Shown: positions 27,429-60,578, numbered from the stretch's first letter. The stretch: 64,000 nucleotides of DNA from Nitrospiraceae bacterium (GCA_046351115.1 JAXLZB010000001.1:2990570-3054569); one strand, 5' to 3'. A program made the numbers and translations. The notes: a model not told the origin generated them from the letters alone.

Positions 27429-28406
27429 ATGACCTCGAAACAAGTCGTGCAATCAACCTCCCCCTCCTCCACGGTCGTGGCTCCCACGCAAAGCGTCGCC
27501 ATAAAAGATTCCCCATCGGTTGAGCGTGCATTGAATCGAAGCAAAGTCTATTTGCTTCTGTCTTGGAGCTTGCTCTATCCCGAAGACGATGAATTCCTGG
27601 ACTATTTGCAGTGCGGAGAATTCGTCGAAGACGGGCGGGCGGCACTCGAGGCGTTGCGTGTCGCGCTGGACGGGATCGGCGGAGAGCGGGCAAAGCAGAA
27701 GATCGGCCTGCTCAACAAGCAGTTCGATTTGATCGAGAAATTGGTCGCGGCTGAATGTGTCAATTGGCAGCTGAGCGATCTGCAGACGGAACATCGCCGG
27801 GTCTTCACCAACGTGATCACGTTGGATTGCCCGCCGTATGAAACGTTGTTCGGGAACGATCACGTGTTTGCGCAGTCCCATGTGATGGGGGACATTGCAG
27901 GGTTCTACAAGGCGTTCGGCGTCGAGCTCTCGAAGGACATCCATGAGCGCTTGGACCATCTGAGCGTCGAGTTCGAATTCATGCATTTCCTCACCTACAA
28001 GGAATCGTACTCGCGTTGCCACGACGGTCTGGAGAAGACTGAAATCGTCGTAGATGCGCAGAAGAAATTCGTCAAGAATCACATCGGTCGATGGGTGCCG
28101 CTGTTTTGTCGCATGCTGGCCAAGAAGGCGGACGCGGGCTTGTTCAAAATTATGGCCGATTGCATGTCTGAGTGGATGGATTTTGAGGTCGCCTTCCTCG
28201 GGGTGAATCCGCAACCCTACTCCGAGGCGGATTATCGGCCGGCTACCTTCAATGCTCCGGAAGGTCAAACCTACGAGTGTGGGGCGCAGGATCAAGGGAA
28301 TGAGCTGAGCATGTTGCTGAGCGAGGTCGGGGCCCAGTCTTTCATGGACCAGAAGGACAAAGAGAAAGACGGCAAAAAAGATGAGGGTCCCGTCGGAACT
28401 GCGTAG
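27429..28406 (+). CDS. TorD/NarJ/DmsD-family redox-enzyme maturation chaperone (NxrD-like)
   Basis: LLSWSLLYPEDDEF, EHRRVFT and DHLSVEFEFMHFL motifs typical of the family. RBS ggtgaggag. Confidence 0.8.
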   Translation: MTSKQVVQSTSPSSTVVAPTQSVAIKDSPSVERALNRSKVYLLLSWSLLYPEDDEFLDYLQCGEFVEDGRAALEALRVALDGIGGERAKQKIGLLNKQFDLIEKLVAAECVNWQLSDLQTEHRRVFTNVITLDCPPYETLFGNDHVFAQSHVMGDIAGFYKAFGVELSKDIHERLDHLSVEFEFMHFLTYKESYSRCHDGLEKTEIVVDAQKKFVKNHIGRWVPLFCRMLAKKADAGLFKIMADCMSEWMDFEVAFLGVNPQPYSEADYRPATFNAPEGQTYECGAQDQGNELSMLLSEVGAQSFMDQKDKEKDGKKDEGPVGTA

Positions 28407-28506: not shown

Positions 28507-29460
28507 ATGAGACTGATGCAGACACGCAACAAGCGTTTGGTGTTTGGCATTCTGCTCTCTGCCCTTATCGTCGGCGTTATGTTGACGATCGGGCAGGTGC
28601 CCCTCGCGGTCAGCCAACCGGTGACCATTCCCGCGAAGGCGATCAAGGGGCCTATCCCAATGGACGGTGCGAACCCCATTTGGGAAGGAGTGCCAGGGGT
28701 CATTATCCCGCTGAGCGGGCAGACCATCACCACGCCGATGCACCCGAATATTTCGGTGAAGTCGGTGTTCGTGAAGGCAATGACCAACGGGAAGGAGCTT
28801 GGGCTGCGCTTGGAGTGGAGCGACCAGACCAAGAATGACACGGCGATCGGACCGCAGGACTTCCGCGATCAGACCGCCATCATGTTCCCGGTGAACACCG
28901 CCGGGGCGCCGCCGTTCCAGTGTATGGGTCAGTCCGGTGGCACCGTCAATATTTGGCGGTGGAACGCGGAGTGGCAGAAGGACATCGGAAAGGACAGCGC
29001 AGGGTTGTGGGACGTGGACGACCAGTATCCTGGCATCTTCTGGGACTACTACTTCGAAGAGCCGGCCGGTGGGGTGACCTACCCGGATCGTATCGGTCGC
29101 AGCCTTGGCCCATTCAACTCCGGTATCTGGTCTGGCAACATCATGTCTGACCCGACGCTGCGGGTCAGCTCCGTCGAGGATCTGAGCGCCAATGGGTTCA
29201 GCACGTTGACCACGCAGGCCCATCAGGATGTGATCGGGAACGGCGTGTGGGAACCGTCAGGCTCCGTCAAGGGCGGTGGTTACACTGGCCCGACCTGGCG
29301 TGTGGTCATTAAGCGTTCGCTGGAGACCAGCGATGCGAACGACACCCAGTTCAAGGCGGGTATGTCTGTGCCCATCGCGTTCGCGGTGTGGGACGGCTCG
29401 AACATCGAACGGAACGGTATGAAGGCGCTCTCCACCTGGTTCACGCTGAAGTTGCCGTGA
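28507..29460 (+). CDS. NxrC-type haem-b subunit candidate (EB_dh domain), exported
   Basis: Signal peptide. LRLEWSDQTKND, NIWRWNAEWQKD, WRVVIKRSL, AFAVWDGSNIERNGMKALSTW. Confidence 0.8.
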   Translation: MRLMQTRNKRLVFGILLSALIVGVMLTIGQVPLAVSQPVTIPAKAIKGPIPMDGANPIWEGVPGVIIPLSGQTITTPMHPNISVKSVFVKAMTNGKELGLRLEWSDQTKNDTAIGPQDFRDQTAIMFPVNTAGAPPFQCMGQSGGTVNIWRWNAEWQKDIGKDSAGLWDVDDQYPGIFWDYYFEEPAGGVTYPDRIGRSLGPFNSGIWSGNIMSDPTLRVSSVEDLSANGFSTLTTQAHQDVIGNGVWEPSGSVKGGGYTGPTWRVVIKRSLETSDANDTQFKAGMSVPIAFAVWDGSNIERNGMKALSTWFTLKLP

Positions 29461-29735: not shown

Positions 29736-31517
29736 ATGAAAGTGTCATTGCTGTTTCCTCCGACCTGGCACCCATCACAACCATATCTGAGTCTTCCTTC
29801 TCTCACCGGTTTTCTCGCTCAAGCAGGCGTCAAAAACGTCTCACAGCGTGACCTTGGCATTGAGCTGTTGGATAAGGTATTGACTCAGTCTTTTGCGGAA
29901 GGGATCTATCAGCAGCTTGTCGATAAACAGCAGGGTCTCGAGCGAACTCGGGCCGGTGAGACTGGGCCAGGCAGCGCCGAGCACCTCTCGCGGGTTGTTG
30001 AGTCCCTGGACCGGTTTCCCTACCTGCACGAACGCATCGAGCTGGCCAAAGAAACGTTGCGTGGGGAGGGGTTCTACGATATCGAGGCTTACCGCAACAG
30101 CCTGTTCTTGATCGATAAATGGCTCGAAGTGGTGTCGTCACTCTACTTTCCCACGCGTTTGACGGTGGTCGATAACCAATTCGGTGACTATTCGATTTAT
30201 TCATCCAAGGATTTGACCAAAGTCATTCGCGATGATACGCAGAACCCCTATATTGGATTGTTTCGGGAGTTGTTCCTGCCATCTATTCTGGCGGACCGCC
30301 CTGACCTCGTCGGCGTGTCGATTACGGCCACTTCGCAGATCATCCCTGGGCTGACCTTGTGTCGTTTGCTCAAGGAGGCCGCGCCGGATGTCCATATTAC
30401 GGTGGGCGGCAGCATCTTCACACGCCTGGTGGACAACTTGCGCCGATGCCAGTGGCTCTTCGACATTACGGATGATTTTGTAGTGTTCGAAGGCGAGACG
30501 GCTTTACTGGAACTCGTCAACCAAATGGAAGGGAAACGGGATTTCAGCAAGGTGCCGAATCTGATTTACCGCCAGAACGGCAAGATCACGGTCAACCAGC
30601 CCTTCTATTCTGAAAACATCAACCAGCTGACCGCGCCCAATTATGACGGGTTCCCGCTCGATCTGTACTTATCGCCGGAGCCCGTGCTACCCGTGCAATT
30701 TTCGCGTGGCTGTTACTACAAAGACTGCGCGTTCTGCGCGCTCACGCTGGATCATCAAAACTTCCGGCAGCGTGACCCCGGTAAGACGGTGGACGATTTG
30801 GAATGGCTTAAGGCACGTTATGGCGCCGAGTTCTTTTTCTTTACCGACGAATGCTTCGCGTTGTCGCCGACCAAGCGCCTCTGTCAGCAGATGATCGATC
30901 GACAATTGAACGTGAAGTGGACGTGCGAGCTGCGTTTTGAAAAGAACTTGAGCCGCGAACTCCTGACGCAAATGCGCGATGCCGGTTGTTTGAAGATCGT
31001 CTTTGGTCTGGAATCCTTCAACCAGCGGGTAATGGATTTCATGAAGAAGGGGATCAAGCAGGAGTGGGTCCGCCGAATCGCTGACGACTGTGTGGATCTC
31101 GGCATCGCCATGCACTGCTATGTGATCGTCGGGTTCCCGACCGAGAAGGAAGAGGAAGCGCTGGAGACGATGAACTTTATCGTCGAGAACAAGAAGCTGA
31201 ACGAGTCCTATGGCTTTTCCTGCCAGCCCTGCTTGTTCGATTTGGAGAAAGAAGCGCCGATCATGAACGATCCGGGCAGCTATGGCATCCGGCGCATCAT
31301 GCGGCCTTCGTCTGAAGACCTCAGTCTGGGGTTCTTCTACGAGGTGCAGGAAGGTATGACGCCGCCCCAGGCGGAACAGCTGTATCAGCACGTGTACGAG
31401 AAGATCAGCGAAGTCGTGTGCGAATTGCCCTTCAATTACTCGATGGCAGATGGGTTGCTGTACATTGCTCGGGAAAAATCACAAGCCGTGCGGGTGCCGC
31501 AACCTGCCGGATCGTAG
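29736..31517 (+). CDS. B12-binding-domain radical SAM protein (class B)
   Basis: N-terminal LLFPPTWHPSQPYLSLPSLTGFL (B12-domain type). Cys triad SRGCYYKDCAFC. No obvious SD before the ATG. Confidence 0.85.
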   Translation: MKVSLLFPPTWHPSQPYLSLPSLTGFLAQAGVKNVSQRDLGIELLDKVLTQSFAEGIYQQLVDKQQGLERTRAGETGPGSAEHLSRVVESLDRFPYLHERIELAKETLRGEGFYDIEAYRNSLFLIDKWLEVVSSLYFPTRLTVVDNQFGDYSIYSSKDLTKVIRDDTQNPYIGLFRELFLPSILADRPDLVGVSITATSQIIPGLTLCRLLKEAAPDVHITVGGSIFTRLVDNLRRCQWLFDITDDFVVFEGETALLELVNQMEGKRDFSKVPNLIYRQNGKITVNQPFYSENINQLTAPNYDGFPLDLYLSPEPVLPVQFSRGCYYKDCAFCALTLDHQNFRQRDPGKTVDDLEWLKARYGAEFFFFTDECFALSPTKRLCQQMIDRQLNVKWTCELRFEKNLSRELLTQMRDAGCLKIVFGLESFNQRVMDFMKKGIKQEWVRRIADDCVDLGIAMHCYVIVGFPTEKEEEALETMNFIVENKKLNESYGFSCQPCLFDLEKEAPIMNDPGSYGIRRIMRPSSEDLSLGFFYEVQEGMTPPQAEQLYQHVYEKISEVVCELPFNYSMADGLLYIAREKSQAVRVPQPAGS

Positions 31518-31585: not shown

Positions 31586-32707
31586 ATGTCCGCTGTTGCG
31601 ACGACAATCGAGCGTGCCACGGGCCGGGTCGAAGACCAGGGGTTGCTGTTCGAGTACACCATCAAGATGGTGCTGCTTGTCGGCTTTCTCGAACTGGTGC
31701 TCTACCGGCTGGTGTCGCGCTTGGGCATGCATATCAGTAAGATTGCCGCTCAACATGAGTGGGTCGGGACGACATTCCGTTGGCTGTCGTCGATCGGCTT
31801 CGTCTTGCTGAACGTGGTGGCGATCTTCGTGTTTCTTGCCTTGCTGGTGCTCCTGCTCAATCGGATTAAAGCCAAGGGCCTGAGCGGCTATAATGTGGTT
31901 ACTCTGCCCTGCGTCGGGCTGCTCTTGGTATTGACGGCGGCATTTCTCGTCGTCCCTCCGGGGATGTTGGGATCGATTGCCTACAACGTTGTCACCGTGA
32001 TCGCCCTGACCGCACTCATGCTGGAATATTGGTCGCTGCACCGCGACCGGCTCCAACGTATTCTGGCAGTCACGTACTATTTCGGCATCTCGGGATGGCT
32101 GTATTACCAAATCGTTTCCACCGCGTACGGCTGGATGGGAGCGTTGGCGGCTCCTCCGCTCGTCTACGAAGCGAACCGGATCGGTGAGGCCTTGATGGTC
32201 ATTGCCAGCATGCTGGTCTTCTGGGCTTACGGACGCGGCCTGTCGTTTCGGACCAGGAACCGCCAACAGCGCCGTCGGGCCGTCTGGTTCTGGTCCGTGG
32301 CGGGTGTGGTATTTTTCGGGCTGTTGTTCATGGATTATTTCCTCAGCATCTACAATCCCGTGCTGGCCACCTCGATGCGTAAGGCAGGCGAGGGGATCAG
32401 TTGGATTTTCCAGATGGGCATGGGCTACACATTCTATCTGCCCTTCGCGTTTTATGTGGCGGGTCTGCTGTGCTGGTCCTACACGGTCATCCGATTGGTG
32501 ACGATGGGACGTGTGGCCGGATATGGTCTCGGGCTCATGTTCATCGCGGGGTATGCCTTGTTGGTATCCAGTCTGACGCTGATGGTGATATTGGGTGTCA
32601 TGTTGCTCACGCTCGATCGTCCGAGGGGAGCCGTGGCCGAACAAGAGTCAGTGCCGAATGAGCCGCTGGTTGGAGCGCAAGAATCGCTCGCCGGGGGGCA
32701 GGTCTAG
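31586..32707 (+). CDS. Polytopic membrane protein of unknown function
   Basis: 373 aa with about 9-10 hydrophobic helices. RBS gggag. Confidence 0.7.
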   Translation: MSAVATTIERATGRVEDQGLLFEYTIKMVLLVGFLELVLYRLVSRLGMHISKIAAQHEWVGTTFRWLSSIGFVLLNVVAIFVFLALLVLLLNRIKAKGLSGYNVVTLPCVGLLLVLTAAFLVVPPGMLGSIAYNVVTVIALTALMLEYWSLHRDRLQRILAVTYYFGISGWLYYQIVSTAYGWMGALAAPPLVYEANRIGEALMVIASMLVFWAYGRGLSFRTRNRQQRRRAVWFWSVAGVVFFGLLFMDYFLSIYNPVLATSMRKAGEGISWIFQMGMGYTFYLPFAFYVAGLLCWSYTVIRLVTMGRVAGYGLGLMFIAGYALLVSSLTLMVILGVMLLTLDRPRGAVAEQESVPNEPLVGAQESLAGGQV

Positions 32708-32736: not shown

Positions 32737-33549
32737 ATGGACGAACAGAAACACACAGCCGGTGCAGAGCAGGGTAGTGCGGCGGTCGATCCTGGCGATC
32801 AGCCCTTGAGCCCCGACGAGGAAATTGCCGAGATTGAAAAAATGCTGGCAACCGAGCCGGATGATTTCCAGGCGCGGTGCCGGTTGGGCGAACTCTATTT
32901 CAGCAAGGGCCGATTGGATGATGCCCTGACTGAGGTCAAGAAGTCGATCGAAATGGCCGAGGGGCTCCGCACCGAAATGAACCGGTCGCTGGCCATGTAT
33001 TACTCCAACCTCGGTACCATCTACGCCACCAAGGGTATGATGGAAGAGGCGGAAACCGAATTCAAACACGCGTTGGAGGTGCACGCATACGACGTGCTCG
33101 CGCTCTTCAATCTGGGGCGCGTCCAGGCGGACAAGAAGAAATTCATGGACGCCAAAGGGTATTATGAACGGTTAGTCGAGATCACGCCGGACGATCCCAT
33201 CGCGTGGTACAACCTGGCCGGCGTCTACGTCGAACTCGACAACCCGCAGGTGTCCGATTACAACACGATGGATATGGCGATCCAGTGTTATCTTCGTGTC
33301 TTGGAACTGGATCCGAAACACTTGGAAGCAAGCTTCAAATTGATGGAAATTGCCCTCAACCACAAGAAGACCGATTTGGCCGTCAAGGTGATGGAAAGTG
33401 CGGTCGAGCACAGTCCGGATGAGCCGCTGGCGTATTACAATTTGATCAGCGTGTACGACAAGTGCAAGATGTTTGAACAGGCCGAACAAGCCCGTCAGCG
33501 TCTCAAAGAGCGGTTTGCCAAGAAGGCCAAAGAGGGTGCCACAACCTGA
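32737..33549 (+). CDS. TPR-repeat protein
   Basis: Repeated 34-aa TPR-like units (LGELYFSKGRLDDAL, LGTIYATKGMMEEAE, YNLAGVY, YNLISVYDKC). Confidence 0.8.
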   Translation: MDEQKHTAGAEQGSAAVDPGDQPLSPDEEIAEIEKMLATEPDDFQARCRLGELYFSKGRLDDALTEVKKSIEMAEGLRTEMNRSLAMYYSNLGTIYATKGMMEEAETEFKHALEVHAYDVLALFNLGRVQADKKKFMDAKGYYERLVEITPDDPIAWYNLAGVYVELDNPQVSDYNTMDMAIQCYLRVLELDPKHLEASFKLMEIALNHKKTDLAVKVMESAVEHSPDEPLAYYNLISVYDKCKMFEQAEQARQRLKERFAKKAKEGATT

Positions 33550-33573: not shown

Positions 33574-33852
33574 ATGTTTGGGAGTCTGGGTTTTACAGAA
33601 TTGATCCTGATTCTGTTCATCGTGCTGATTATTTTCGGCGCGGGAAAATTGCCGCAATTAGGTGAGGGTCTCGGAAAAGCGATCAAGGGCTTCAAGAAGT
33701 CGGTGCACGAGGCGGACGCCATCGAAGCTGAGGCGCAGGCGCAGCAAGCGGCGACCCAGGCTCAGGCCATCCAAGCTCCGGCCCCGCAGATGCAGGTGCC
33801 CACGGTGGAGCAGCAACCGGCCGTCGCGGCTCCCCCGGCATCCCACGCTTAG
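33574..33852 (+). CDS. tatA: Twin-arginine translocase subunit TatA/E
   Basis: [42 protein letters not shown]. Low-complexity A/Q-rich tail. Confidence 0.9.
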
Positions 33853-33899: not shown

Positions 33900-35150
33900 A
33901 TGGATACTGAACTGCAGTTGGCGTCCGGGTACATCGAGACCTTCGCTGGAAACGGCAAGGCCCGCAGCACAGGCGACGGCAAGCGCGCGGTGAAAGCGGG
34001 GATCCCGCTTCCTCACCATGTGGCTCTCGACCGGGAAGAGCGGTGGCTCTATTTTGCCGAATCCGGGTCGGACCGCATTCGACGGGTCAATCTAGCGGAA
34101 GGAACGGTCCACAACTTTGCCGGCATCGGCGAGACCTGCTACAGCGGAGACGAGGGGCCATGCGGCGAGGCTGGGCTGTATCTTCCCCTTGATGTCGCGT
34201 TCGACTCCCGGAACGACTTGTATATTTGTGATTCCGGCAGCAACCGAATCCGCAAGGTCGATCACGAGACCGGAATCATCACCACCGTCGTCGGGACCGG
34301 CGAGCACGGGTTCAACGGGGATGGTTTGGCGCTCGAGGTCAATCTCACGTGGCCGGCCGCGATCGCCTTCGATGCCGAAGACGTCATGTATATTGCCGAT
34401 ACGCAGGCGCACCGCATTCGTCGGTTCGATTCCCGAACCGGTCGGGTGGAGACCATCGCTGGAACCTGGACGTCGGAAGATGAGGCCCGCGAGCAGCCGC
34501 TTGTGGCGCGCAATCTCGTGGTGTTGTCCGGAGATGCGATCGGCATCGACTTCAGCGACGACAACGGCTGGCTCATGCCGGTTTGTTCGGACGGACTCGA
34601 CCTGTCGCTCTACCTGGACGACGGCCGGCCGGCCGTAGAGTCTCGCCTCTATGACCTGGTCGGGATTGCAGTGGACCGCGCGGGGGATGTGTATGTGGTC
34701 GACAAGGCCAGCAACCGCGTGCGGCGTATCGACCGGAATACCGGCATCATCACGACGCTGGCAGGGGTGTGTCGGTATGGGTTTGACGGCGATGGAAAGC
34801 CTGCGGCCAAGTCCATGCTGCATGCACCGGAAGCCATCGTATTCGACGACCACAATCATGCCTACGTGTCGGACACCGGAAACCATCGTGTGCGCAAGAT
34901 TGAAGCCGGCACGGGGCTGATCAGCACGGTTGCAGGTAACGGTGACAGTGGTTATGAAGACAAGAACATGGGCGGCTGCGGCGCCGCTCGGTTTGTGGCC
35001 AAAGATGCTGCTGGTGCGTTGAAGCACGGTGACGGCTTGCTGGCGGTTGAGGCGGTGGTCAATTCCCCCGTCGGACTGGCGATCGACCGGCAGGGTCAGC
35101 TGTATATTTGTGAGCGAGGGGAAAACAAGATTCGTCGGGTCAAGCTGTAA
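33900..35150 (+). CDS. NHL-repeat beta-propeller protein
   Basis: Repeated (D/E)SG(S/N)(N/H)R(I/V)R(K/R)(V/I) units. No signal peptide seen. Confidence 0.8.
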   Translation: MDTELQLASGYIETFAGNGKARSTGDGKRAVKAGIPLPHHVALDREERWLYFAESGSDRIRRVNLAEGTVHNFAGIGETCYSGDEGPCGEAGLYLPLDVAFDSRNDLYICDSGSNRIRKVDHETGIITTVVGTGEHGFNGDGLALEVNLTWPAAIAFDAEDVMYIADTQAHRIRRFDSRTGRVETIAGTWTSEDEAREQPLVARNLVVLSGDAIGIDFSDDNGWLMPVCSDGLDLSLYLDDGRPAVESRLYDLVGIAVDRAGDVYVVDKASNRVRRIDRNTGIITTLAGVCRYGFDGDGKPAAKSMLHAPEAIVFDDHNHAYVSDTGNHRVRKIEAGTGLISTVAGNGDSGYEDKNMGGCGAARFVAKDAAGALKHGDGLLAVEAVVNSPVGLAIDRQGQLYICERGENKIRRVKL

Positions 35151-35160
35151 GCGACCTGCG

Positions 35161-35191
35161 CCCGCCGATCCGGACATGCCGGATCGGCGGG
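35161..35191 (+). terminator. Strong GC hairpin after the NHL gene (13-bp perfect stem)
   Basis: cccgccgatccgg / ccggatcggcggg with a 5-nt loop. No U-tract. Confidence 0.45.
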
Positions 35192-35231: not shown

Positions 35232-36074
35232 ATGGGGCGAATGACATCGGTCCCAATTTCGCGAACACCTCTATTGGCATTGCTGGCTGGTCTCTTCGTG
35301 GTCGCCCTGTTGCTGGGAGGATTCGGTATTCCCATCGTCAGTTCCGAGGGCATGATCATCCGTGCACAAGCGGTTTCGGGAGATGTGCCGCTCGCTCCGG
35401 AAGATCCCGCCTGGCAGAAGATTCCTCCCATGACATTGCCCTTGAGCGGGCAAATCATCACCCGTCCGGTCTGGCCCGAACCTACTGCGCGCGCATTGAC
35501 CGTGCGGGCGGTTCATAATGGAACCGATATTGCGTTTTTGCTCGAGTGGCAGGACAACACCAAGAATGATCGACTGACTCCAGGAACGTTTCGCGACGGT
35601 GTTGCGATCGGGCTTCCCCTCGGTGACGCCCCGGCCTTCTTCTGCATGGGGCAGCTTGATCACTACATCAACATTTGGCACTGGAAGGCAGATTGGCAGA
35701 GTGACATCGACCGGCGCGCCGCGCGGACCACAGAAAAGGACAAGTCGGGAAGTGGTGAGCCTCGGCGTTTCGAAGTGATCCCCAGACGCGCCTCCTCCGT
35801 CGAGGACTTGATCGGAGGCGGTTTCAGTACCCTGACGACGAAGGAAAAGCAGGGTCGGGTTCAGGGTAAAGCTTACTGGAAGGATGGAACCTGGCACGTT
35901 GTGATGCGGCGCCCATTGTCTAGCGAAGAGCAGGACAACGAAGCCAAGTTGATCCCTGGGCGAATCCAGGCCGTCTCTTTCGCGGTATGGAACGGTGAGA
36001 ATAAGGAGCGCAACGGGCAGAAGGCCGTTGCTCCCTGGTTCCAGCTGTCGTTGGACCCAAGCGTGAAGAGTTAA
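35232..36074 (+). CDS. NxrC-type haem-b subunit candidate (EB_dh domain), second paralogue
   Basis: Signal/anchor. FLLEWQDNTKND, NIWHWKADWQSD, WHVVMRRPL, SFAVWNGENKERNGQKAVAPW. Confidence 0.8.
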   Translation: MGRMTSVPISRTPLLALLAGLFVVALLLGGFGIPIVSSEGMIIRAQAVSGDVPLAPEDPAWQKIPPMTLPLSGQIITRPVWPEPTARALTVRAVHNGTDIAFLLEWQDNTKNDRLTPGTFRDGVAIGLPLGDAPAFFCMGQLDHYINIWHWKADWQSDIDRRAARTTEKDKSGSGEPRRFEVIPRRASSVEDLIGGGFSTLTTKEKQGRVQGKAYWKDGTWHVVMRRPLSSEEQDNEAKLIPGRIQAVSFAVWNGENKERNGQKAVAPWFQLSLDPSVKS

Positions 36075-36102
36075 CCTAGCCCTGCTTGCAGGGTGGGAGG
36101 GA

Positions 36103-36573
36103 ATGATTTTCGACCGACGATGCCCGTTCACAGGAGCCCTTTCTCGCGGAAGGGCTTTTTTTGTGGGTATGATCATGCTGGCGGGCGTCTTTTGCGTCGC
36201 CGGGGCCGGATTGGCGGCCGACAACGGCCAGATGACGGCGGACGAAGCGGTGCAACTGGGTGAAGAATTCGGCATCGCGGTGGGGGAAGTCGACGAAGAA
36301 ATTCAACGGGAATTGAAACTCCAGCGTCCGGAAGGCGTAGCGGTGTTCGAAGTGATCGGCAATTCCCGGGCCGACTATGCCGGGATCAAGGTCCGTTCCG
36401 TCATCAAAGAAATCGATAAGAAGGAAGTGCGCAACCTGATCGATTTCGGCAAAGCCATCAAGGTCGCAATGAAGGAATGCAATTTCACGGTGGGCACCTA
36501 TGAACCGGCCGACCCCGGCGATCCAGTCGGGTGGGGCGTGAACTTTCATTTTGTCGGCTGCAAACGAGACTAA
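36103..36573 (+). CDS. Exported PDZ-domain protein
   Basis: Signal peptide (MIMLAGVFCVAGAGLAA), then a PDZ-like GVAVFEVIGNSRADYAGIKVRSVIKEIDKKEV. Confidence 0.65.
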   Translation: MIFDRRCPFTGALSRGRAFFVGMIMLAGVFCVAGAGLAADNGQMTADEAVQLGEEFGIAVGEVDEEIQRELKLQRPEGVAVFEVIGNSRADYAGIKVRSVIKEIDKKEVRNLIDFGKAIKVAMKECNFTVGTYEPADPGDPVGWGVNFHFVGCKRD

Positions 36574-36590
36574 GAGGAGCACCGGGTCGC

Positions 36591-37898
36591 GTGATACGTC
36601 CAGGCAAGGGTATTCAACGAGTGGCGATGGGTCTGCTGCTGCTGGGCCTGTCGGTGCTCAATATCACCTTCCATGAACGAGCGATCGCCCAGAAGACCGA
36701 TGGGCAGGCGCCTGCCGAGTGGGTCGACGAGATCGAGAAGATTTTTATCCGCTCTGAGGATTGCAAGCAGTGCCATGATCGACACTATGAAGAGTGGAAG
36801 GGGGTGCGCGAGCAGACGCCAGACTTGAAGACTTTCGGCCGGGTCGATGCGGCGCTGCTCCATGGCACATCCTTTGAGTCGCCGGTTTTCCGAACCGTCC
36901 TCGGTGTGTGGATGCAGACGAATCCGACATTGGACGAACGGCAGCGCTGTCTCTCCTGCCACGCGCCTGCGGTGACGGTGTTTCCGCAACATGCCGAAAA
37001 GATTGCAGCGCAGGTGCTCTCCGGCAAACCCCAAGTCGAGGGGATCGGCTGTGCCTCCTGTCACCTCATCAATGCCGTCGAGAAGACGCCGCTTCCTCCG
37101 CCGACCTTCAAGGTACAGCCGGGGTCGATGCTGTACGGACCCTATGCCGATCCTGAAGAAAATCTCGTACATCCGGCGTCGCAATCCGATCTGTTCCGCG
37201 GGGCGAATTTCTGTGCCTCTTGTCATTTCGACAAGGTGAAAGACGTGACGCAGAAGGACCTGCCGGGAGAAATTCTTCAGGGGACCATCTGTCAGGATTG
37301 TCACATGGAGCCGTCGACCGGCAGTTCCACCTCCAAACGTGGCGCGATGACGCGAGCCATCGGGCGTCACTGGTTCCGCGGGGTGGTGATTCCCGGGACG
37401 CTGCTCAAGAATAGAAACTTGCAAGCGGAATGGATGCCGCGTCTCGACATTGAAACAACGAAGTCGGCGTCCGCTGTTGAAGGCACCGTGTTGGTCAAGA
37501 TCGGCAGTCTGCCCCATAGCTTCCCCGACGGAGATCCGGTGCTCAAACAATTTTCCCTATCCATCAGCGTGAAAGATGCGGATGGGAATGTGTTGAGCGA
37601 AGAGGTGAAGCGGTTCGGCTTGCCGTACGACAAGATTCTGCGTGGGCCGATTCCCGACCCCTTTATCAAGGGCGGCAATACGAGGCGGGTGCCGTTCACG
37701 CAAACGTTGAAGCCCGGTGCGGCCCCGGCGACCATCGAAGTCGTCTTGAGCTATGCGCTGATTCCGGAGCCCGACGCGGCGTTGAAAGACAAGTATCTTG
37801 CGACGTTGGCCACGGAACAGGAGCGTGCCATGGCGAAGAAGGTAATCGAGGAATACGTGCAGCCTCGCGTGCTGACCTATCGCGCCAAGCCCTTGTGA
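36591..37898 (+). CDS. Pentahaem cytochrome c
   Basis: Five CxxCH motifs (CKQCH, CLSCH, CASCH, CASCH, CQDCH). Start is GTG 36591 or ATG 36627; the ORF-track start 36531 overlaps the PDZ gene. Confidence 0.8.
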   Translation: MIRPGKGIQRVAMGLLLLGLSVLNITFHERAIAQKTDGQAPAEWVDEIEKIFIRSEDCKQCHDRHYEEWKGVREQTPDLKTFGRVDAALLHGTSFESPVFRTVLGVWMQTNPTLDERQRCLSCHAPAVTVFPQHAEKIAAQVLSGKPQVEGIGCASCHLINAVEKTPLPPPTFKVQPGSMLYGPYADPEENLVHPASQSDLFRGANFCASCHFDKVKDVTQKDLPGEILQGTICQDCHMEPSTGSSTSKRGAMTRAIGRHWFRGVVIPGTLLKNRNLQAEWMPRLDIETTKSASAVEGTVLVKIGSLPHSFPDGDPVLKQFSLSISVKDADGNVLSEEVKRFGLPYDKILRGPIPDPFIKGGNTRRVPFTQTLKPGAAPATIEVVLSYALIPEPDAALKDKYLATLATEQERAMAKKVIEEYVQPRVLTYRAKPL

Positions 37899-37955
37899 GG
37901 TTGGCCTCGTTCTGCATGGTGGGTGAGATCTGCGGGGACAGGAGGAAAAGCGACG

Positions 37956-39194
37956 GTGACGCATCATCGGAAGCGGGTGGCGTGGACGGTCATCGGGTTG
38001 ATGCTGGGGCTCTGCATGGGGCTAGCCTATGGAGTTCAGCAGGGACTGGCCCAGGATCAAAAATCGGCTCTTTCAATCGACAAAGCATTTCCCAGTTCCA
38101 GCAAGTGCAAGCGCTGTCATGAACGTGTATTCGAAGAATGGGAAACCTCGCCGCTTTCCCGGTCCATCCATACACCAACCTTTCGGGCGGCCCTCGACGC
38201 ATACCTGAATTCCCCGGCCGGCAAAGACAAGGCGTTGTGTTTTCGTTGCCATGCGCCGCACGTCCGGGAGTTCACCGATCAGGCCCAACAGTTCGTTGCC
38301 CAAGCTCAGTCCGGTGAGCCCACGTTCGATGGAGTGGCTTGCGCCCAATGCCATCTGATCAAGCAGGTCGACCGGACGAAACAACCGCCAGAGCCCAAGT
38401 ACGACGTCGGCAGTAAGACCATGTATGGCCCATACAAGGACTTCGCTCAGAATTTGGCCCACCAGTCGATGGAACTCGGTCTCTTCCAGAAGTCCGATCT
38501 CTGTTTGAACTGTCATCAGGTGGTGCCGGCGGCAGCGGACCTCGGCAAGAGCAATGATTTGTTGGGCAACTGGGACCAAAGCAAGGCCGTCAAGTCCGGC
38601 AAGGAATGCCAGGCCTGTCATATGCCGGAGCAGGTCGGAGAATCTGCGAACGGTGAACGGAAACGGAAGGTGGCGAACCATACCTTCCCGGGCCGTATCG
38701 GGCAGCTTCGACAGGAGGCTGTCAAGCTCGAAGTGACCACCAAGGTCGAGGGTGAGAAGACGCTCGTGACGGTCACGGTGCAGAGCTTGGTCCCTCATAA
38801 TCTTCCGACCACGCATCCGGGCTGGGCCAGCGTCGTCCTTGAACTTGATATCAAGGGGAAGAATCTCAAGACGGTCTTCAACGAGAAGCGGATCTATGGA
38901 CGCGCCTACGCCGACGCCAAGGGCCAGAAGACCGTGTTTGATTTTGAAGCCACGAAGGTGCTGGAAGACACCGTCTTGAAGCCGGAAGAAAAGCGTGTGG
39001 AGACCTTCTCATTTCCCACACCGAAGGACACGAAGACGTTCGACGTCGAGGCCAGTCTCAGCTATGCCCCCGTGACCGGTCCCGCTCCGTTCCTGCAGCG
39101 CATCGAGGCAGAATCCTCCAAAGGCGCGCAGGACCCGGTGTTCCAACCGATTCCCATCGTCAAATTCAGCGAGAATATTCCGGTCAATAAATGA
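37956..39194 (+). CDS. Pentahaem cytochrome c (tandem paralogue)
   Basis: Five CxxCH motifs (CKRCH, CFRCH, CAQCH, CLNCH, CQACH), collinear with 36591..37898. GTG 37956 follows ggagga; the ORF-track start is 37923. Confidence 0.8.
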   Translation: MTHHRKRVAWTVIGLMLGLCMGLAYGVQQGLAQDQKSALSIDKAFPSSSKCKRCHERVFEEWETSPLSRSIHTPTFRAALDAYLNSPAGKDKALCFRCHAPHVREFTDQAQQFVAQAQSGEPTFDGVACAQCHLIKQVDRTKQPPEPKYDVGSKTMYGPYKDFAQNLAHQSMELGLFQKSDLCLNCHQVVPAAADLGKSNDLLGNWDQSKAVKSGKECQACHMPEQVGESANGERKRKVANHTFPGRIGQLRQEAVKLEVTTKVEGEKTLVTVTVQSLVPHNLPTTHPGWASVVLELDIKGKNLKTVFNEKRIYGRAYADAKGQKTVFDFEATKVLEDTVLKPEEKRVETFSFPTPKDTKTFDVEASLSYAPVTGPAPFLQRIEAESSKGAQDPVFQPIPIVKFSENIPVNK

Positions 39195-39276: not shown

Positions 39277-39531
39277 CTACTCGGCGACGATTTTCGAGCC
39301 AGGCGATTTCATCTTGAAGATTTGAATCGCGCTGTAGATGCCCTTGGCGGGATGATTGAGGATGAGCCGAGAATTGGTGATGTGAGTGTCGATCAGCTCG
39401 TACTGCCCCCCGCTGTAGAAGATGTCGCAGTCGTCGATCTGGCAGTTTTTGTAGACGTGGTTGTCCAGGCAGAGCTTGGCCTTACTGAAGTTCTGCTGAT
39501 CCACGATGATGTAGGTCGGTTCCAGTCCCAT
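39277..39531 (-). CDS. Hypothetical 84-aa protein
   Basis: gagagga SD 4-6 nt before the ATG. No recognisable motif. Confidence 0.5.
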   Translation of the reverse strand: MGLEPTYIIVDQQNFSKAKLCLDNHVYKNCQIDDCDIFYSGGQYELIDTHITNSRLILNHPAKGIYSAIQIFKMKSPGSKIVAE

Positions 39532-51664: not shown

Positions 51665-52954
51665 TTAGAGCCAGTTGACCCGTTCTGCGGGTCGGATGTA
51701 GATCGGCTCTTCGACCTGAATGCGCGCCACTTCCTTGCCCGACTTGTTGAAGCCCAGCACGGTGTCGTTATACATGTCGAATCGCTTCCCGTGGATCTGG
51801 GTTTCGAACACTTTCGGGCCCGGAATGACGTCGTACCGGAAGATGATCTGCTGGCTGGCGCGCCACAATTGCAGCACCGCCAACAGTTCGCGGCTCGGCA
51901 CGAGATACTTCTCGATCGCATTGTCGACGCCCGGCCCGAACATCTGCCGGTTGTAGCCCCGCGGCGCGTGCCGCGGCGGAATATAGTACCCGTTGGGCTC
52001 CGTCCCCCATTGCGGGAACAGCGGCAAGGCCACCTGCTCCACGCGGATCGTGTAGTACAGGGGATGCCACCGGTCTTCCGCCCAGAGGCCGTCTTCGCCG
52101 ATGCGCACCAGGCTCTGCATGCGAATCTTGCCCACGCAGGCCGCCATACAGCGCGTTTCCATCGGCTCGCCGCCCGTCAAGGGGTCTTTGCCCTCGATGC
52201 GCGGATAGCACGCAATGCACTTTTCCGACACCCGGGTCGTGCCCCGGTACATCGGCTTCTTGAACGGGCACTGTTCCACGCACTTCTTGTACCCGCGGCA
52301 CCGGTTCTGGTCGATCAACACGATGCCGTCTTCCGGCCGCTTGTAGATCGCCTTGCGCGGGCAGGCTGCCAAGCAGCCCGGATACGTGCAGTGGTTGCAA
52401 ATGCGCTGGAGGTAGAAGAAGTACGTCTCGTGTTCCGGCAAGCTTGAGCCGGAGAGCCGCCACGGTTCGTCCCGGGAGAACCCGGATTTATCGATGTTTT
52501 CCACGAGCGCCCGCATCGAGGTCGCCGTGTCTTCATAGATGTTGACGAACCGCCACTCCTGGTCCGTCGGGATGTAGCCGATCGCCGCCTGGCCCACCTT
52601 GGCGCCCGCGTCGAAAATGGTCATCCCTTCGAACACCCCGTACGGGGCATGGTGCTTGCGGCCGACCCGCACGTTCCATACCTGGCCGCCCGGGTTCACC
52701 TGCTCGATGAGCTGGGTGATCTTCACGTCGTAGAACTGGGGATACCCGCCGTACGGCTTGGTCTCCACGTTGTTCCACCACATATACTCCTGGCCCTTGG
52801 AGAACAGCCAGGTCGACTTGTCCGCCATCGAACAGGTCTGACAGGCCAAACAGCGATTGATGTTGAACACAAAGGCAAACTGCCACTTCGGATGCCGCTC
52901 CTCGTAGGGATACAGCATCTTTCGTCCCAGGTGCCAGTTATACACTTCAGGCAT
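51665..52954 (-). CDS. nxrB: Nitrite oxidoreductase beta subunit (Nitrospira type)
   Basis: 429 aa, MPEVYNWHLGRKMLYPYEERHPKWQFAFVFNINRCLACQTCSMADK. Fe-S motifs CNHCTYPGCLAACP and CRGYKKCVEQCP. No signal peptide. Confidence 0.95.
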   Translation of the reverse strand: MPEVYNWHLGRKMLYPYEERHPKWQFAFVFNINRCLACQTCSMADKSTWLFSKGQEYMWWNNVETKPYGGYPQFYDVKITQLIEQVNPGGQVWNVRVGRKHHAPYGVFEGMTIFDAGAKVGQAAIGYIPTDQEWRFVNIYEDTATSMRALVENIDKSGFSRDEPWRLSGSSLPEHETYFFYLQRICNHCTYPGCLAACPRKAIYKRPEDGIVLIDQNRCRGYKKCVEQCPFKKPMYRGTTRVSEKCIACYPRIEGKDPLTGGEPMETRCMAACVGKIRMQSLVRIGEDGLWAEDRWHPLYYTIRVEQVALPLFPQWGTEPNGYYIPPRHAPRGYNRQMFGPGVDNAIEKYLVPSRELLAVLQLWRASQQIIFRYDVIPGPKVFETQIHGKRFDMYNDTVLGFNKSGKEVARIQVEEPIYIRPAERVNWL

Positions 52955-53025
52955 TGGAAATCCTCCTTCTCATGATCAGATGGTTGTCTGTTGTGAGCTT
53001 CCTCAAGGCTTCCATCGCTCGTCGT

Positions 53026-53059
53026 GCGTGAAGCGTGGTTTGCGATCGACGCTTCACGC
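53026..53059 (-). other. Intercistronic hairpin between nxrA and nxrB
   Basis: gcgtgaagcgt / acgcttcacgc 11-bp perfect stem with a 12-nt loop, 10 nt after the nxrA stop. Confidence 0.45.
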
Positions 53060-53068
53060 GCGCCGCCG

Positions 53069-56000
53069 TTAGACTTTGATCTTGATGTGCTCGCCTTTGA
53101 GCCACTTGATCATGAACTCGTTTTCCTGACCCGGCGTGAAGCCCGTCCGGACCGGTTCCCACGGCCCACGCGCCCCGATGCCGCCGTCTTCCGCCTTGGT
53201 GATGCGGATCAAGCATTCCTTCGGGACCGTGTTGATCGCGTGGTGGTCGACCTGATAGCCCCACTTGAACTTCCAGGCAATCGCGTGTTTGCCCGGCAGC
53301 GAGTCGGTTTGGTGCATCGGCATCAACCAGTTCCGGGTAAAGGACTGTTGGGCCCCATACCGGAAGTTGGACTGATAGCCGGTGTCCACCGCGATGGCGC
53401 GGCCGTCCGGTCGCGTCTCGTGGCCCTTCACCGACTTCGGCGTCGACACGTACGGGGCGTGCTTCGCCATCGTGACGTGGTACGGATACGCCGGGTTGTA
53501 CTTGGCGCGGATCATCAAGCGCGCGACCTTGTAGTACGGATCCGAGGGCTTCCAGCCGCGGTACGGCCGGTCCACCGGGTTGCCGTCGACATACACGTAG
53601 TCGCCGTCGTTGATGCCGCGATCCTTCGCGGCCTGCGGGTTGATGTGGATCTGGTGCTCGCCGACGCCCGGCGTCCGCTTGTCCATGCGGTAGGGATCGC
53701 CGAAGTTCGACTCGTAAATCTGCACCCAGTCGTTCACCGACCACTGGCTGTGGACCCGGTGGCGGGTCTTCGGGGTGACGCAGTAGAACTGGTACCCTTT
53801 TTCCCACAACGGGTTCGCATGCCGTTTGATTTCTCCCCACGGCAACTTGATGTTGCGCACGTGTTTGTCGTCATGGTGCTGCGCCGTGATCGGAATCCCG
53901 TAGTCGTCCGGGCGGACGTACGGGTTGCTCGTCATGATCGCGTTCGGGAGGTAGGGCGTACATTCCGGCCCTTCCCGATGGACGACGAAGTTTTCGCCGT
54001 ACTCGATCGCCTCCGGTTCGATCCGGTAGGTCTCGATCCGGCCCGACCGCGTCCACTGAGGTTTCGACTCGTTGGTTTCTTCCCAGAGCGGATGGCGCGG
54101 ATAGGTGCGGCCCATGACCATCCAGCCCTTTTCCGACTTCAACATGACGTCGGCGCTGTATCCGTAGCAGGTTGAGCTGGCGTCCAGCATCCGCTGCGGG
54201 TACACATCGACGCGGTTCATATAGACGAAATGGAACACGCCGCGGAAGCGGGCATCGCCCGTTATCTCCGTCAACTTGGATGCGACACCGGCGAATGTGT
54301 CGGCATCGTTGCGGGTGTCGTACAACGGCCGGATGCCGCCCTTCCAGATCTGCACCCACGGATTGGACACCGTGGCCGTCATTTCCGGATAGGTGAATTC
54401 CATCCAGCTGTTGCAGGCAAACGCCACATCGGCGTGGTTGACGTCGGATGTCATCTCGATGTCCTGGGTCACGATCATCTCGATGTTCGGGTCGACGTTC
54501 TTCACCATGTCGTAGTGGTGTTTCGCGTTGTTCAGGATGTTCACATTCGTGACCCACCGGACCTTGCTGGGGCTCGGCATGTGGGTCTTGCCGGTGAACA
54601 CCTTGCGTCCGTACTTCGGCGTGTTGACGATCAAGGCCGTGTCGCCGTGGTTCCAGTACCCGACCTCTTCGCCGTAGTAGTACGACTTGGTCTTGATTTC
54701 CTTGCCATGGGCATTGGGGTCCAACGTAAGGTTGAACGGATCTTCTCCCGTATGCACGGCGAGGCCGGCGCCGGACCACGGCACCGCGTTCCAGATGCCG
54801 GCTTTGTAGTTGCCGGACCAGGTGTGGCATCCGGTGCCGAACTTGCCGATATTCCCGGTCAGAGTGAGCACCATGGCTGCCGCACGCCCCATTTCCGTCA
54901 TGTGGAAGTAGTGGCAGACGCCTTCGCCGTTGTGCATCGCGGCCGGCTTGACCGTGCCCGAGTCGCGCGCCCACCGGACAATGAGATCCTTCGGCGCCCG
55001 GGTGATTTGATGCGTCGTATCCAGGTCGTAGTCCTGGAGGTGGACCAAGTACAGCTGGTAGATCGACATGACGTCGACCTCCCGACCGTTCAAGAGCTTC
55101 ACGCGGAACGTCCCGGTCAGGGCCGGGTCGATACCGCTGGCCTTGAAATGAACTCCGACCATTTCACGATGGATGGGGACCGCCTTGCCCTTGGCCAGAT
55201 CCCACACCATCATCCCGCCGAGCCGCTCGATCTGGTCCGGCTTGAGGGATTGGATGCGTCCGGAATAGCTCTTGGAAAAATCCGGCAGCTTGTAGTCCGC
55301 GATGACGTCGCGCGGATCGAGGTATTGCAGCGTATCCGTGCGGACGAGAAGCGGGAGGTCCGTGAAATCCTTGATGTAGTCGATATCCTGCATGTTCTCG
55401 TCGAGAATGATCTTGCAGGCACCGAGGAAGTGTGCGGCATCGGTTTCTGGCCGCAGCGGAATCCAATAGTCGGCCCGATAGGCCGTCGGATTGTATTCCG
55501 GCGTGATGACGACGATCCGGGCGCCGCGCTCGATCGACTCGAGTTTCCAGTGGGCTTCCGGCATCTTGTTCTCGACGAAGTTCTTCCCCCAGCTGGTGTT
55601 CAGTTTGGAGAAGCGCATGTCGTTGAGATCGATGTCGCAGTTCTGCGTGCCGTTCCACCAGGGGTGGGACGGGTCCTGGTCGCCGTGCCAGGTGTAATTC
55701 GAGTAATACTTGCCGCCTTGCGCTTTATCCGGATCAACCTTCCGGATGAATGTGTCGAGGAGAGGCAGGCATCCGCCGTTAAACCTGGTGTTCATCATCT
55801 TGCCGACGATGCCCAGCACCGGCATGCCCGCGCGATGCTTGAAGCACCGCACGCCCGCGCCCTTCATCATCTCGATCATTTCCGGGGCATAGCCCTGCTC
55901 GCGCAACCGCCTCGCACCGGACTCCCCGCTGTACCGCGTCGCGATCACGATGCAGGCCTTGGCCACATACGTAAACGCCGTGTCCCAGGAGACCCGATTC

Positions 56001-56512
56001 ATGTCGTCGAGGAAGCGGCTGTCGAATTTGTATTTGCGTTTGACGTCCGGCGTCAGCTCGGGGGAGCCGTCGTCCATCCACTGCTTCCAGCCCTTCCGCA
56101 TTAACGGCCCCTTCAACCGATAGGGTCCGTACACGCGGCGATGGAAGGTGAACCCCTTCAGGCACATGCGCGGGTTGTGCGCGAATGTCCCGCGATTGCC
56201 GTAGAGGTCCTCATAGGTTTGGTGATCGTAGTTCTGCTCGACCCGCATGACGACGCCGTTCCGGACGAAGGCCCGGACGCGACAGCCGTGGGTATCATTC
56301 GGCGAGCAGCACCACGTAAACGACGAGTCATACCGGTACTGGTCATGGTAGACGCGCTCCCACGACCGGTCCGGATACTCGCCCAGCGGGTTCCCGACTT
56401 CCACGACCGGCTGCAGCGCGGTCAGCGCCAGGACTTTATCCGCCACGGCGATCGCCGCGACGGTTCCCACCGTCACTTTGAGAAATTGTCTCCGTGAAAC
56501 GGAAACGTGCAT
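53069..56512 (-). CDS. nxrA: Nitrite oxidoreductase alpha subunit (periplasmic, Mo-bis-MGD, Tat-exported)
   Basis: MHVSVSRRQFLKVTVGTVAAIAVADKVLA Tat signal. WCCSPNDTHGCR Fe-S motif. About 1147 aa. ATG 56512 with aaggagg 8 nt upstream; the ORF-track TTG is at 56518. Confidence 0.95.
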   Translation of the reverse strand: MHVSVSRRQFLKVTVGTVAAIAVADKVLALTALQPVVEVGNPLGEYPDRSWERVYHDQYRYDSSFTWCCSPNDTHGCRVRAFVRNGVVMRVEQNYDHQTYEDLYGNRGTFAHNPRMCLKGFTFHRRVYGPYRLKGPLMRKGWKQWMDDGSPELTPDVKRKYKFDSRFLDDMNRVSWDTAFTYVAKACIVIATRYSGESGARRLREQGYAPEMIEMMKGAGVRCFKHRAGMPVLGIVGKMMNTRFNGGCLPLLDTFIRKVDPDKAQGGKYYSNYTWHGDQDPSHPWWNGTQNCDIDLNDMRFSKLNTSWGKNFVENKMPEAHWKLESIERGARIVVITPEYNPTAYRADYWIPLRPETDAAHFLGACKIILDENMQDIDYIKDFTDLPLLVRTDTLQYLDPRDVIADYKLPDFSKSYSGRIQSLKPDQIERLGGMMVWDLAKGKAVPIHREMVGVHFKASGIDPALTGTFRVKLLNGREVDVMSIYQLYLVHLQDYDLDTTHQITRAPKDLIVRWARDSGTVKPAAMHNGEGVCHYFHMTEMGRAAAMVLTLTGNIGKFGTGCHTWSGNYKAGIWNAVPWSGAGLAVHTGEDPFNLTLDPNAHGKEIKTKSYYYGEEVGYWNHGDTALIVNTPKYGRKVFTGKTHMPSPSKVRWVTNVNILNNAKHHYDMVKNVDPNIEMIVTQDIEMTSDVNHADVAFACNSWMEFTYPEMTATVSNPWVQIWKGGIRPLYDTRNDADTFAGVASKLTEITGDARFRGVFHFVYMNRVDVYPQRMLDASSTCYGYSADVMLKSEKGWMVMGRTYPRHPLWEETNESKPQWTRSGRIETYRIEPEAIEYGENFVVHREGPECTPYLPNAIMTSNPYVRPDDYGIPITAQHHDDKHVRNIKLPWGEIKRHANPLWEKGYQFYCVTPKTRHRVHSQWSVNDWVQIYESNFGDPYRMDKRTPGVGEHQIHINPQAAKDRGINDGDYVYVDGNPVDRPYRGWKPSDPYYKVARLMIRAKYNPAYPYHVTMAKHAPYVSTPKSVKGHETRPDGRAIAVDTGYQSNFRYGAQQSFTRNWLMPMHQTDSLPGKHAIAWKFKWGYQVDHHAINTVPKECLIRITKAEDGGIGARGPWEPVRTGFTPGQENEFMIKWLKGEHIKIKV

Positions 56513-56684
56513 AGCCAATACCTCCTTGTAAGGCAGATCAATGATTCATGGTGCTGTTCGTGCCATCGAGTCGGCCGGTCCGCAGAACATCTGTGATCAC
56601 CTCCCTTCGCGTGGTCGGATGGAAACATCTCGTTGCGGAACCGGTTGTAATCGTGCGAACAGCGCATGACGGGGTATGGGAATA

Positions 56685-58402: not shown

Positions 58403-58404
58403 GG

Positions 58405-60447: not shown

Positions 60448-60578
60448 AGATGCCGCTCGCCTCCGTGGTGACAAACCAACACTCCGTCCCGCGTGGCGGA
60501 TGCGGGACGATCGGCTCGGGCCTAGATACCCTATCGTAGGAGGGGACCTATCGCTAATCAACCCCCCATCAACTTGCA

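Follow-up and report, generated by a model that had tools for sequence, protein, structure and literature searches.

An NxrC paralogue, a PDZ-like protein and two pentahaem cytochromes c as a possible periplasmic side relay of nitrite oxidoreductase in Nitrospirales

The four genes and the array that they close

The stretch of DNA analysed here, termed the window, comprises 64,000 nucleotides of one strand from a Nitrospiraceae bacterium (GCA_046351115.1, JAXLZB010000001.1:2990570-3054569), a lineage-I-like Nitrospira and a different species from N. moscoviensis. Its subject of interest is a set of four co-directional genes, which may encode a periplasmic relay linked to nitrite oxidoreductase (NXR): nxrC_1 (ORF1; ORF, open reading frame) for a paralogue of the NXR gamma subunit, the gene of a PDZ-like protein (ORF2), and cytA (ORF3) and cytB (ORF4) for two pentahaem cytochromes c (Table 1). 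A first-pass annotation had described four exported genes with gaps of 17–57 nt, placed between a strong hairpin and a convergent gene and carrying one haem b and ten haem c sites. This description was borne out in each part. The gaps measure 28, 17 and 57 nt, and all four N-termini, read by eye from the translations, are basic and then hydrophobic. The hairpin upstream of nxrC_1 is real, with a perfect 13-bp stem and a 5-nt loop; the stem is kept in the centroid structure and the 81-nt segment that holds it folds with z = −3.2 against shuffles. It is not conserved among the other Nitrospirales compared. The convergent ORF occupies the same position across Nitrospira sensu stricto, where its product is 64–90% identical. 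The haem sites correspond to Met139 and Lys264 of ORF1 and to five CxxCH motifs in each cytochrome.

As for the gene starts, ATG 35241 (277 aa) is the likelier one for ORF1, as called in a metagenome-assembled genome (MAG) with a 99% identical PDZ protein. The start of cytA is GTG 36591, preceded by AAGAGGAG, and that of cytB is GTG 37956, preceded by AGGAGG; the longer mechanical ORF start at 36531 and that at 37923 are not used. A simple scan of the cluster for sigma-54 promoters gave no convincing site, and the numbers from a sigma-70 promoter and terminator scan were near chance.

The four genes are the 3′ end of a longer co-directional array, which runs from ~26.6 kb to 39.2 kb in the order Fer4 protein, TorD/NarJ-like chaperone, EB_dh protein of 317 aa (NxrC_2), B12/radical-SAM protein, a protein without assigned name, TPR protein, TatA, NHL-repeat protein, EB_dh protein of 277–280 aa (NxrC_1), PDZ-like protein, cytA and cytB. 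The same order, followed by the convergent 84-aa ORF and an H+-PPase gene, was found in N. moscoviensis, N. japonica and one close MAG. A genome scan with one genome per species returned at least 80 loci, all of which, among the matches listed, are of Nitrospirales, one of them in a record that bears the label Nitrospinota. On contigs of sufficient length, the order from NxrC_2 through the radical-SAM, unnamed, TPR, TatA and NHL proteins to NxrC_1, PDZ, cytA and cytB is kept. This is the case in about 60 species-level Nitrospirales genomes and holds even in a clade whose cytB is only ~50% identical. The notion of a compact, autonomous cluster has to be given up, since these genes close a longer array that is flatly expressed from the radical-SAM gene to cytB in N. 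moscoviensis.

Table 1. Coordinates of the four genes, of the two hairpins and of the neighbouring genes in the window
Feature	Position	Strand	Description or basis
nxrC_1 (ORF1)	35232..36074	+	minor NXR gamma-subunit paralogue of the EB_dh type, with haem b; signal peptide or anchor at N-terminus
PDZ-like protein gene (ORF2)	36103..36573	+	small, secreted; mature part ~115 aa; alternative annotated start GTG 36163
cytA (ORF3)	36591..37898	+	periplasmic pentahaem cytochrome c, 435 aa
cytB (ORF4)	37956..39194	+	periplasmic pentahaem cytochrome c, 412 aa
convergent 84-aa ORF	39277..39531	-	closes the array; no known family matched
13-bp hairpin	35161..35191	+	between NHL-repeat gene and nxrC_1; no U-tract
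terminator-like element	36136..36162	+	within codons 12–20 of the PDZ gene
NapG-like Fer4 protein	26602-27207	+	Pfam, synteny
TorD/NarJ-like chaperone	27429-28406	+	Pfam, synteny
NxrC_2, main paralogue	28507-29460	+	EB_dh
B12/radical-SAM protein	29736-31517	+	Pfam, synteny
protein without assigned name	31586-32707	+	synteny
TPR protein	32737-33549	+	Pfam, synteny
TatA	33574-33852	+	Pfam, synteny
NHL-repeat protein	33900-35150	+	Pfam, synteny
nxrB copy	51665-52954	-	type II DMSO-reductase beta profile
nxrA copy	53069-56518	-	type II DMSO-reductase alpha profile

The record labelled Nitrospinota (L038, JACZVJ010000005.1, titled 'Nitrospinota bacterium') carries a complete array of the Nitrospirales type, and its identities equal those of the divergent clade of Nitrospirales. 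Probably the record was mislabelled taxonomically or wrongly binned; horizontal transfer is less likely. An nxrAB copy (51665..56518) lies 12.5 kb downstream of the four genes on the opposite strand, and two pairs of a sensor kinase and a sigma-54 activator flank the region at 19580-24207 (+) and 56966-60930 (-). The former lies upstream of the accessory array and corresponds to what is listed as 'two-component system' in the published cluster, and the latter adjoins nxrAB.

The first-pass annotation knew of no characterised module of this kind. As a gene cluster it has prior description, that of N. moscoviensis being contained in two publications (PMC6606698, PMC12342949). The N. moscoviensis genes NITMOv2_3614-3617 are orthologous gene for gene with those of the window (77–80% identity), in the same order and with the same neighbours, except that N. 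moscoviensis has an additional gene for a FAD-dependent oxidoreductase of 449 aa (L001, 12106-13455) between cytB and the convergent 84-aa ORF, which is absent from the window. Mundinger et al. (2019) reported five NxrC candidates for this organism, among them nxrC_1 (NITMOv2_3617) with about 352–354 RPKM (reads per kilobase per million mapped reads) during nitrite oxidation (PMC6606698). The nxrC_2 gene, located beside the TorD-like chaperone, reached 20,365 RPKM (Table 2 of that paper), level with nxrA and nxrB; the supplement, which mapped less strictly, gives 18,780 RPKM (PMC6606698). According to the same supplement, the two genes annotated as 'putative Pentaheme cytochrome c', NITMOv2_3615 (cytA) and NITMOv2_3614 (cytB), were found at 342 and 424 RPKM, and the upstream genes at 376 (radical-SAM), 414 (unnamed protein), 539 (TPR), 617 (TatA) and 719 RPKM (NHL). 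It is evident that NxrC_1, cytA and cytB are expressed near-equally, at 3–7 times the median during nitrite oxidation, that the level is flat with the upstream neighbours, and that it lies ~50-fold under that of the NXR core.

The cluster NITMOv2_3614-3631, to which these genes belong, was listed as specific to NXR-positive organisms among 140 genes proposed to be diagnostic of nitrite-oxidising Nitrospirales (PMC12342949). Distinct downstream acceptors for the different NxrC forms had been suggested by Lücker et al. (2013), and in periplasmic type II molybdoenzymes a soluble gamma subunit of the EB_dh type exchanges electrons with c-type cytochromes (PMC3578206). The cluster, with its conserved array, and the general idea of an acceptor-specific NxrC are therefore already known. 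A literature search for a cryo-EM structure of Nitrospira NXR found none.

Cofactor sites of NxrC_1 and of the two cytochromes

ORF1 matches the Pfam family EB_dh (PF09459) with 4e-33 and 115.8 bits against a cut-off of 33.3. With NCBIfam TIGR03477 (DMSO_red_II_gam) it scores 155.6 bits, under the trusted cut-off of 169.85, the match falling into two stretches. In searches of PDB sequences it was related to NxrC of Kuenenia stuttgartiensis (7B04 chain C, 7.4e-25) and to EbdC of ethylbenzene dehydrogenase (2IVF chain C, 4.7e-16). In the alignment, M108 and K201 of EbdC, which bind haem b, correspond to Met139 and Lys264 of ORF1, and the latter two are invariant in 67 orthologues. Judged by these profiles and residues, ORF1 is a genuine haem-b protein of the EB_dh/NxrC type with its ligands intact. 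An exact-sequence look-up of ORF1 gave no record. The protein is 91–96% identical to proteins of Nitrospira MAGs and 80% identical to its orthologue NITMOv2_3617, which was published as the N. moscoviensis candidate NxrC_1.

Comparison with the characterised gamma subunits revealed what is shared and what is not. Kuenenia NxrC and EbdC have the EB_dh fold and the Met/Lys ligands in common with ORF1 and, like it, are Sec-exported and have no C-terminal membrane helix. NxrC_2 of the window, to which ORF1 is 35% identical, matches Kuenenia NxrC from end to end (3.8e-33), including a central insertion of ~45 aa. This insertion is missing in ORF1, whose alignment with Kuenenia NxrC falls into two pieces. 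The nxrC_1 gene is not encoded beside nxrAB, and its transcripts are far fewer than those of NXR. The earlier proposal of an alternative NXR gamma subunit can be kept as to the protein type with intact ligands, the orthology with NxrC_1 and the synteny with NXR maturation genes. As the transcript is ~50-fold less abundant than those of NxrC_2 and nxrAB, NxrC_1 can be at most a minor or alternative partner.

CytA and cytB are paralogues with 30% identity to each other, and cytB is 85% identical to a protein of N. defluvii and 77% to that of N. moscoviensis. All five CxxCH motifs of each are invariant in 82 orthologues. Only two proteins in the PDB are related to them by sequence, namely pentahaem cytochrome c552 from Thermochromatium tepidum (5ZE8) and MccSep of Geobacter (9WT8). 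For cytB the matches are 1.4e-10 to 5ZE8 and 4.6e-8 to 9WT8, the latter across residues 36–357, i.e., nearly end to end; cytA matches both as well (profile match 2e-8). The protein c552 is the best match in the PDB by sequence and by Foldseek and has five haems and a beta-sandwich but no selenocysteine; identity amounts to ~20–30% across the aligned stretches, the loop of c552 reads PHAMPTGAP, and the genomic context is not comparable. The AlphaFold2 model of cytA was poor (pLDDT 48; shallow alignment of close orthologues), with a predicted beta-sandwich, and Foldseek with this model returned 5ZE8 first via the beta-sandwich region and otherwise generic Ig-like domains. The predicted layout of cytA is an alpha-helical haem cap followed by a C-terminal beta-sandwich.

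MccSep of Geobacter sulfurreducens (GSU2937-2936) is a multihaem selenoprotein polysulfide reductase and a homotetramer, in which the selenocysteine Sec325 and Cys239, the distal ligand of haem 2, are both essential for activity. Like cytA and cytB, it is a periplasmic protein of ~400 aa with five CxxCH motifs. In MccSep these lie within an alpha-helical cap, and an Ig-like domain at the C-terminus sends a loop of the form H-x-x-P-x-G-X-P toward haem 2; a comparable layout is predicted for cytA. The residues needed for catalysis differ. The loop HSFPDGDP of cytA aligns with HSIPDGUP of MccSep and places Asp at the position of selenocysteine, the loop HNLPTTHP of cytB places His there, and the haem-2 ligand Cys239 is gone. 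Moreover, cytA and cytB are two diverged, tandem-encoded paralogues as opposed to one homotetrameric protein. No Cys is present between the haem-4 and haem-5 motifs in any of ~80 orthologues of cytA or cytB. Outside the motifs, exactly five His are invariant in cytB (H102, H169, H242, H281 and H287, in about 76–83 sequences), H287 being the one at the selenocysteine position. The number is again exactly five in cytA (H65, H91, H194, H260 and H309, in about 76–82 true orthologues), where D315 is invariant too. Because each cytochrome offers five such His and the catalytic Cys/Sec has been lost, cytA and cytB appear to be plain electron carriers, with all ten haems probably bis-His six-coordinate and devoted to electron transfer and not to catalysis.

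This bears on the idea of a functional system of the MccSep or ExtKL type, that is, a polysulfide or selenite reductase or an outer-membrane porin–cytochrome conduit. The homology to MccSep in the PDB speaks for it, as does NCBIfam, in which ExtKL (NF040886) is the best family match of both cytochromes. Nevertheless, the scores of 114.7 bits for cytB (3.8e-33) and 70.8 bits for cytA are far under the cut-off of 250, the equivalents of Sec/Cys325 and Cys239 are replaced in all orthologues, there is no lipobox (the leader of cytB has a single Cys, which is not kept in its orthologues), and no neighbouring gene for a porin, a rhodanese or a lipoprotein emerged from Pfam scans and neighbour comparisons. 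Residues, scores and missing porin and lipoprotein genes led us to reject both the conduit and the MccSep-type reductase, and such a system must be regarded as very improbable.

A second alternative places the module apart from NXR. NxrC_1 would then be a stand-alone haem-b carrier and one of the cytochromes, likeliest cytA, an enzyme descended from MccSep and acting on a small nitrogen or sulfur compound. The D-G-x-P loop of cytA is in favour of this, since HSFPDGDP corresponds residue for residue to HSIPDGUP and its Asp is invariant, and so are the expression far under NXR and the size and diversity of the wider family, which counts 1773 clusters at 50% identity including MccSep-like members of the Cys type. 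In addition, a divergent Nitrospirales MAG (AMR_MDS_0955; locus L044, 8523-11227) has cytA-cytB alone, with no nearby gene for NxrC_1 or the PDZ protein and with BLUF/PsiE genes, an SDR gene, a divergent class I cytochrome c gene and a photolyase gene as neighbours; the pair can therefore work without adjacent NxrC_1 and PDZ genes. At another locus (L071), cytA-cytB is accompanied by an NxrC_2-like gene ~6 kb downstream on the other strand. On the opposite side stand the missing equivalent of Cys239, the five invariant His for five haems of cytA, which leave no obviously open haem, the rigid synteny with NXR maturation genes and the restriction to NXR-positive clades. We consider an NXR-independent module possible but unlikely.

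Within the wider family, one cytB-like homologue (P0365, 40% identical) has His at the selenocysteine position and retains the Cys-Cys pair that corresponds to MccSep Cys239. From its sequence, it may stand midway in the evolution from enzymes of the MccSep type to the cytochromes of Nitrospira. A metagenome scan with this protein, aimed at the module outside Nitrospirales, returned only Nitrospira cytB orthologues.

The PDZ-like protein and the hairpin in its gene

The product of ORF2 stays under threshold with two Pfam families, PDZ_1 (20.9, cut-off 28) and PDZ_6 (17.7, cut-off 27). A profile built from 50 orthologues matches the PDZ domains of DegP/HtrA with 4.9e-8, the protein itself matches the PDZ region of NCBIfam TIGR02037 (degP_htrA_DO) with 3.4e-10, and the name given by NCBI is 'PDZ domain-containing protein'. 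The label PDZ-like is thus acceptable as far as profile comparisons go. The AlphaFold2 model was poor (pLDDT 50; shallow alignment of close orthologues) and Foldseek with it uninformative. No protease domain accompanies the PDZ domain in the Pfam and NCBIfam scans.

The C-terminus of cytA (37875-37898) is conserved as LT[FY]R..xL, i.e., R-x-x-x-L, with the terminal Leu in 66 of the 76 orthologues. Because of this conserved R-x-x-x-Leu end, and whereas cytB ends with Lys, the cytA C-terminus is a plausible candidate ligand of the adjacent PDZ-like protein.

A third alternative is a role in the biogenesis or organisation of NXR. The module would then help in the assembly, poising or anchoring of the NXR lattice on the membrane; the PDZ protein would serve as a tether, the cytochromes would poise the redox state or be structural partners, and no catabolic electrons would be carried. 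In the periplasm, PDZ domains typically occur in proteins of quality control, the neighbours in the array comprise a TorD-like chaperone and radical-SAM, TPR, TatA and NHL proteins, and everything from the radical-SAM gene to cytB is expressed at one flat, modest level. However, ten haem c sites and an intact haem-b site would be costly if they were purely structural, and the PDZ domain has no protease domain with it. A biogenesis role is quite unlikely in our estimation.

For the PDZ gene the long start is favoured by the basic-hydrophobic N-terminus that it provides in the window, N. moscoviensis and N. japonica; the open frame together with an upstream start was found in 21 species. The terminator-like element lies within the codons thus added. 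It consists of the stem GCCCTTTC/GGAAGGGC with the loop TCGC and is followed by T7. The hairpin and a run of six to seven U are present in ~25 Nitrospira species, always in frame as A-L-P-x-G-R-A-F-F, and occupy the same position in L003, L005, L047, L051, L053, L056-L059, L061-L063, L065, L067, L069, L073, L077, L078, L080-L082, L084 and L085. Among the orthologous PDZ genes compared, those of the N. moscoviensis group have neither, nor do those of the divergent clade of Nitrospirales. Codons that are rare in the window are fixed in the element (Arg AGG 4%, Ala GCT 10% and Phe TTT 31%, each as its share of the codons for that amino acid), and where amino acids change, the nucleotides are kept, as in R to W by TGG, F to L by TTA or TTG, F to V by GTT and F to C by TGT. 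The fixed rare codons and the nucleotides kept through amino-acid changes suggest selection at the RNA level, in which the element would act as a terminator or attenuator between nxrC_1 and PDZ-cytA-cytB. A twin-arginine reading of the 'GRAFF' motif was dismissed owing to its single Arg.

With regard to a single operon, order and gaps are kept and the RPKM values are equal in N. moscoviensis, yet the hairpin and U-run are conserved in the 5′ part of the PDZ gene in those ~25 species. N. moscoviensis, the only organism with transcript data, is without the embedded hairpin, unlike the window.

A separate observation concerns two Cys of the PDZ-like protein, Cys126 (36478-36480) and Cys153 (36559-36561), which co-occur in 27 of the 70 orthologues, apparently those of Nitrospira sensu stricto. 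The other orthologues have mostly Lys or Gln at 126 and Ile or Val at 153. This pattern points to a disulfide peculiar to that lineage and placed within the C-terminal extension of the protein, which is invariant.

A proposed periplasmic side relay and its meaning for Nitrospira

The reading that we tentatively favour is that of an NXR-linked periplasmic side relay, minor or conditional in its use. The four genes are the distal part of an NXR-accessory array of nitrite-oxidising Nitrospirales. NxrC_1 is a secreted haem-b protein with Met/Lys ligation and the fold of the NXR gamma subunit without the central insertion. The always-adjacent paralogues cytA and cytB would probably form a heteromer, and the PDZ-like protein is a probable adaptor, which perhaps clamps the hydrophobic C-terminus of cytA. 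Together they could constitute a relay of one haem b and ten haems c that docks to NxrAB through NxrC_1 or to NxrABC_2; in other words, NxrC_1 might take the place of NxrC_2 on some NxrAB, or the relay might dock to the complex. Such a relay would carry a minor or conditional route, e.g., by feeding electrons into nitrate reduction, by connecting to reverse electron transport or by acting as a buffer; the main flow between nitrite and the terminal oxidase would not pass through it. The link to NXR is drawn from the NXR-restricted profile, the rigid synteny with NXR maturation genes, the intact cofactor sites, the lost catalytic residues and the pairing of cytA with cytB.

In selenate, chlorate and perchlorate reductases and in dimethyl sulfide dehydrogenase, electrons travel between the molybdoenzyme and the membrane chain by way of a soluble gamma subunit with haem b or of a multihaem cytochrome, a comparison to be taken as a functional analogy only. 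None of these systems is known to have a cytochrome pair of the c552/MccSep fold or a PDZ protein.

Several points weigh against a relay on NXR. Transcripts ~50-fold under the NXR core mean a stoichiometry far from 1:1, and the flat expression from the radical-SAM gene to cytB would suit a biogenesis role equally well. The solitary cytA-cytB pair of L044 belongs here as well. NxrC_1 is without the insertion common to NxrC_2 and the structurally verified Kuenenia NxrC, and given this missing segment its docking to NxrB might differ. Finally, the haem ligation is read from conservation alone, the AlphaFold models being poor (pLDDT ~50).

Bis-His multihaem proteins are often of low potential, which would favour electron input over uptake from nitrite at +430 mV. 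If the relay reading is carried to its most specific form, NxrC_1, PDZ, cytA and cytB would be a low-potential decahaem input wire that switches a sub-population of NXR to nitrate reduction or feeds reverse electron transport. The cytochromes would represent a domesticated MccSep-type pair, in which selenocysteine was replaced by His in cytB, closing haem 2, and by Asp in cytA; the PDZ protein would capture the cytA C-terminus, and the dosage would be set via the terminator in the PDZ signal-peptide codons. Taken as a whole, this is a speculative proposal and improbable in all its parts at once.

For the route by which electrons leave or enter the periplasmic NXR of Nitrospira, the published candidates are several NxrC paralogues and various cytochromes. 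Current views are not overturned by the present analysis. What is added here are useful leads that can be tested: the kinship of cytA and cytB with a fold family of solved structures (5ZE8, 9WT8), the loss of the catalytic residues together with the five plus five invariant His, which would make the pair wire-like, the candidate role of the cytA C-terminus as PDZ ligand, and a possible tuning by a terminator-like hairpin within a coding region. The module is among the few gene sets that are restricted to NXR-positive Nitrospirales and fixed in position beside NXR maturation genes, and for this reason it is a reasonable biochemical target.

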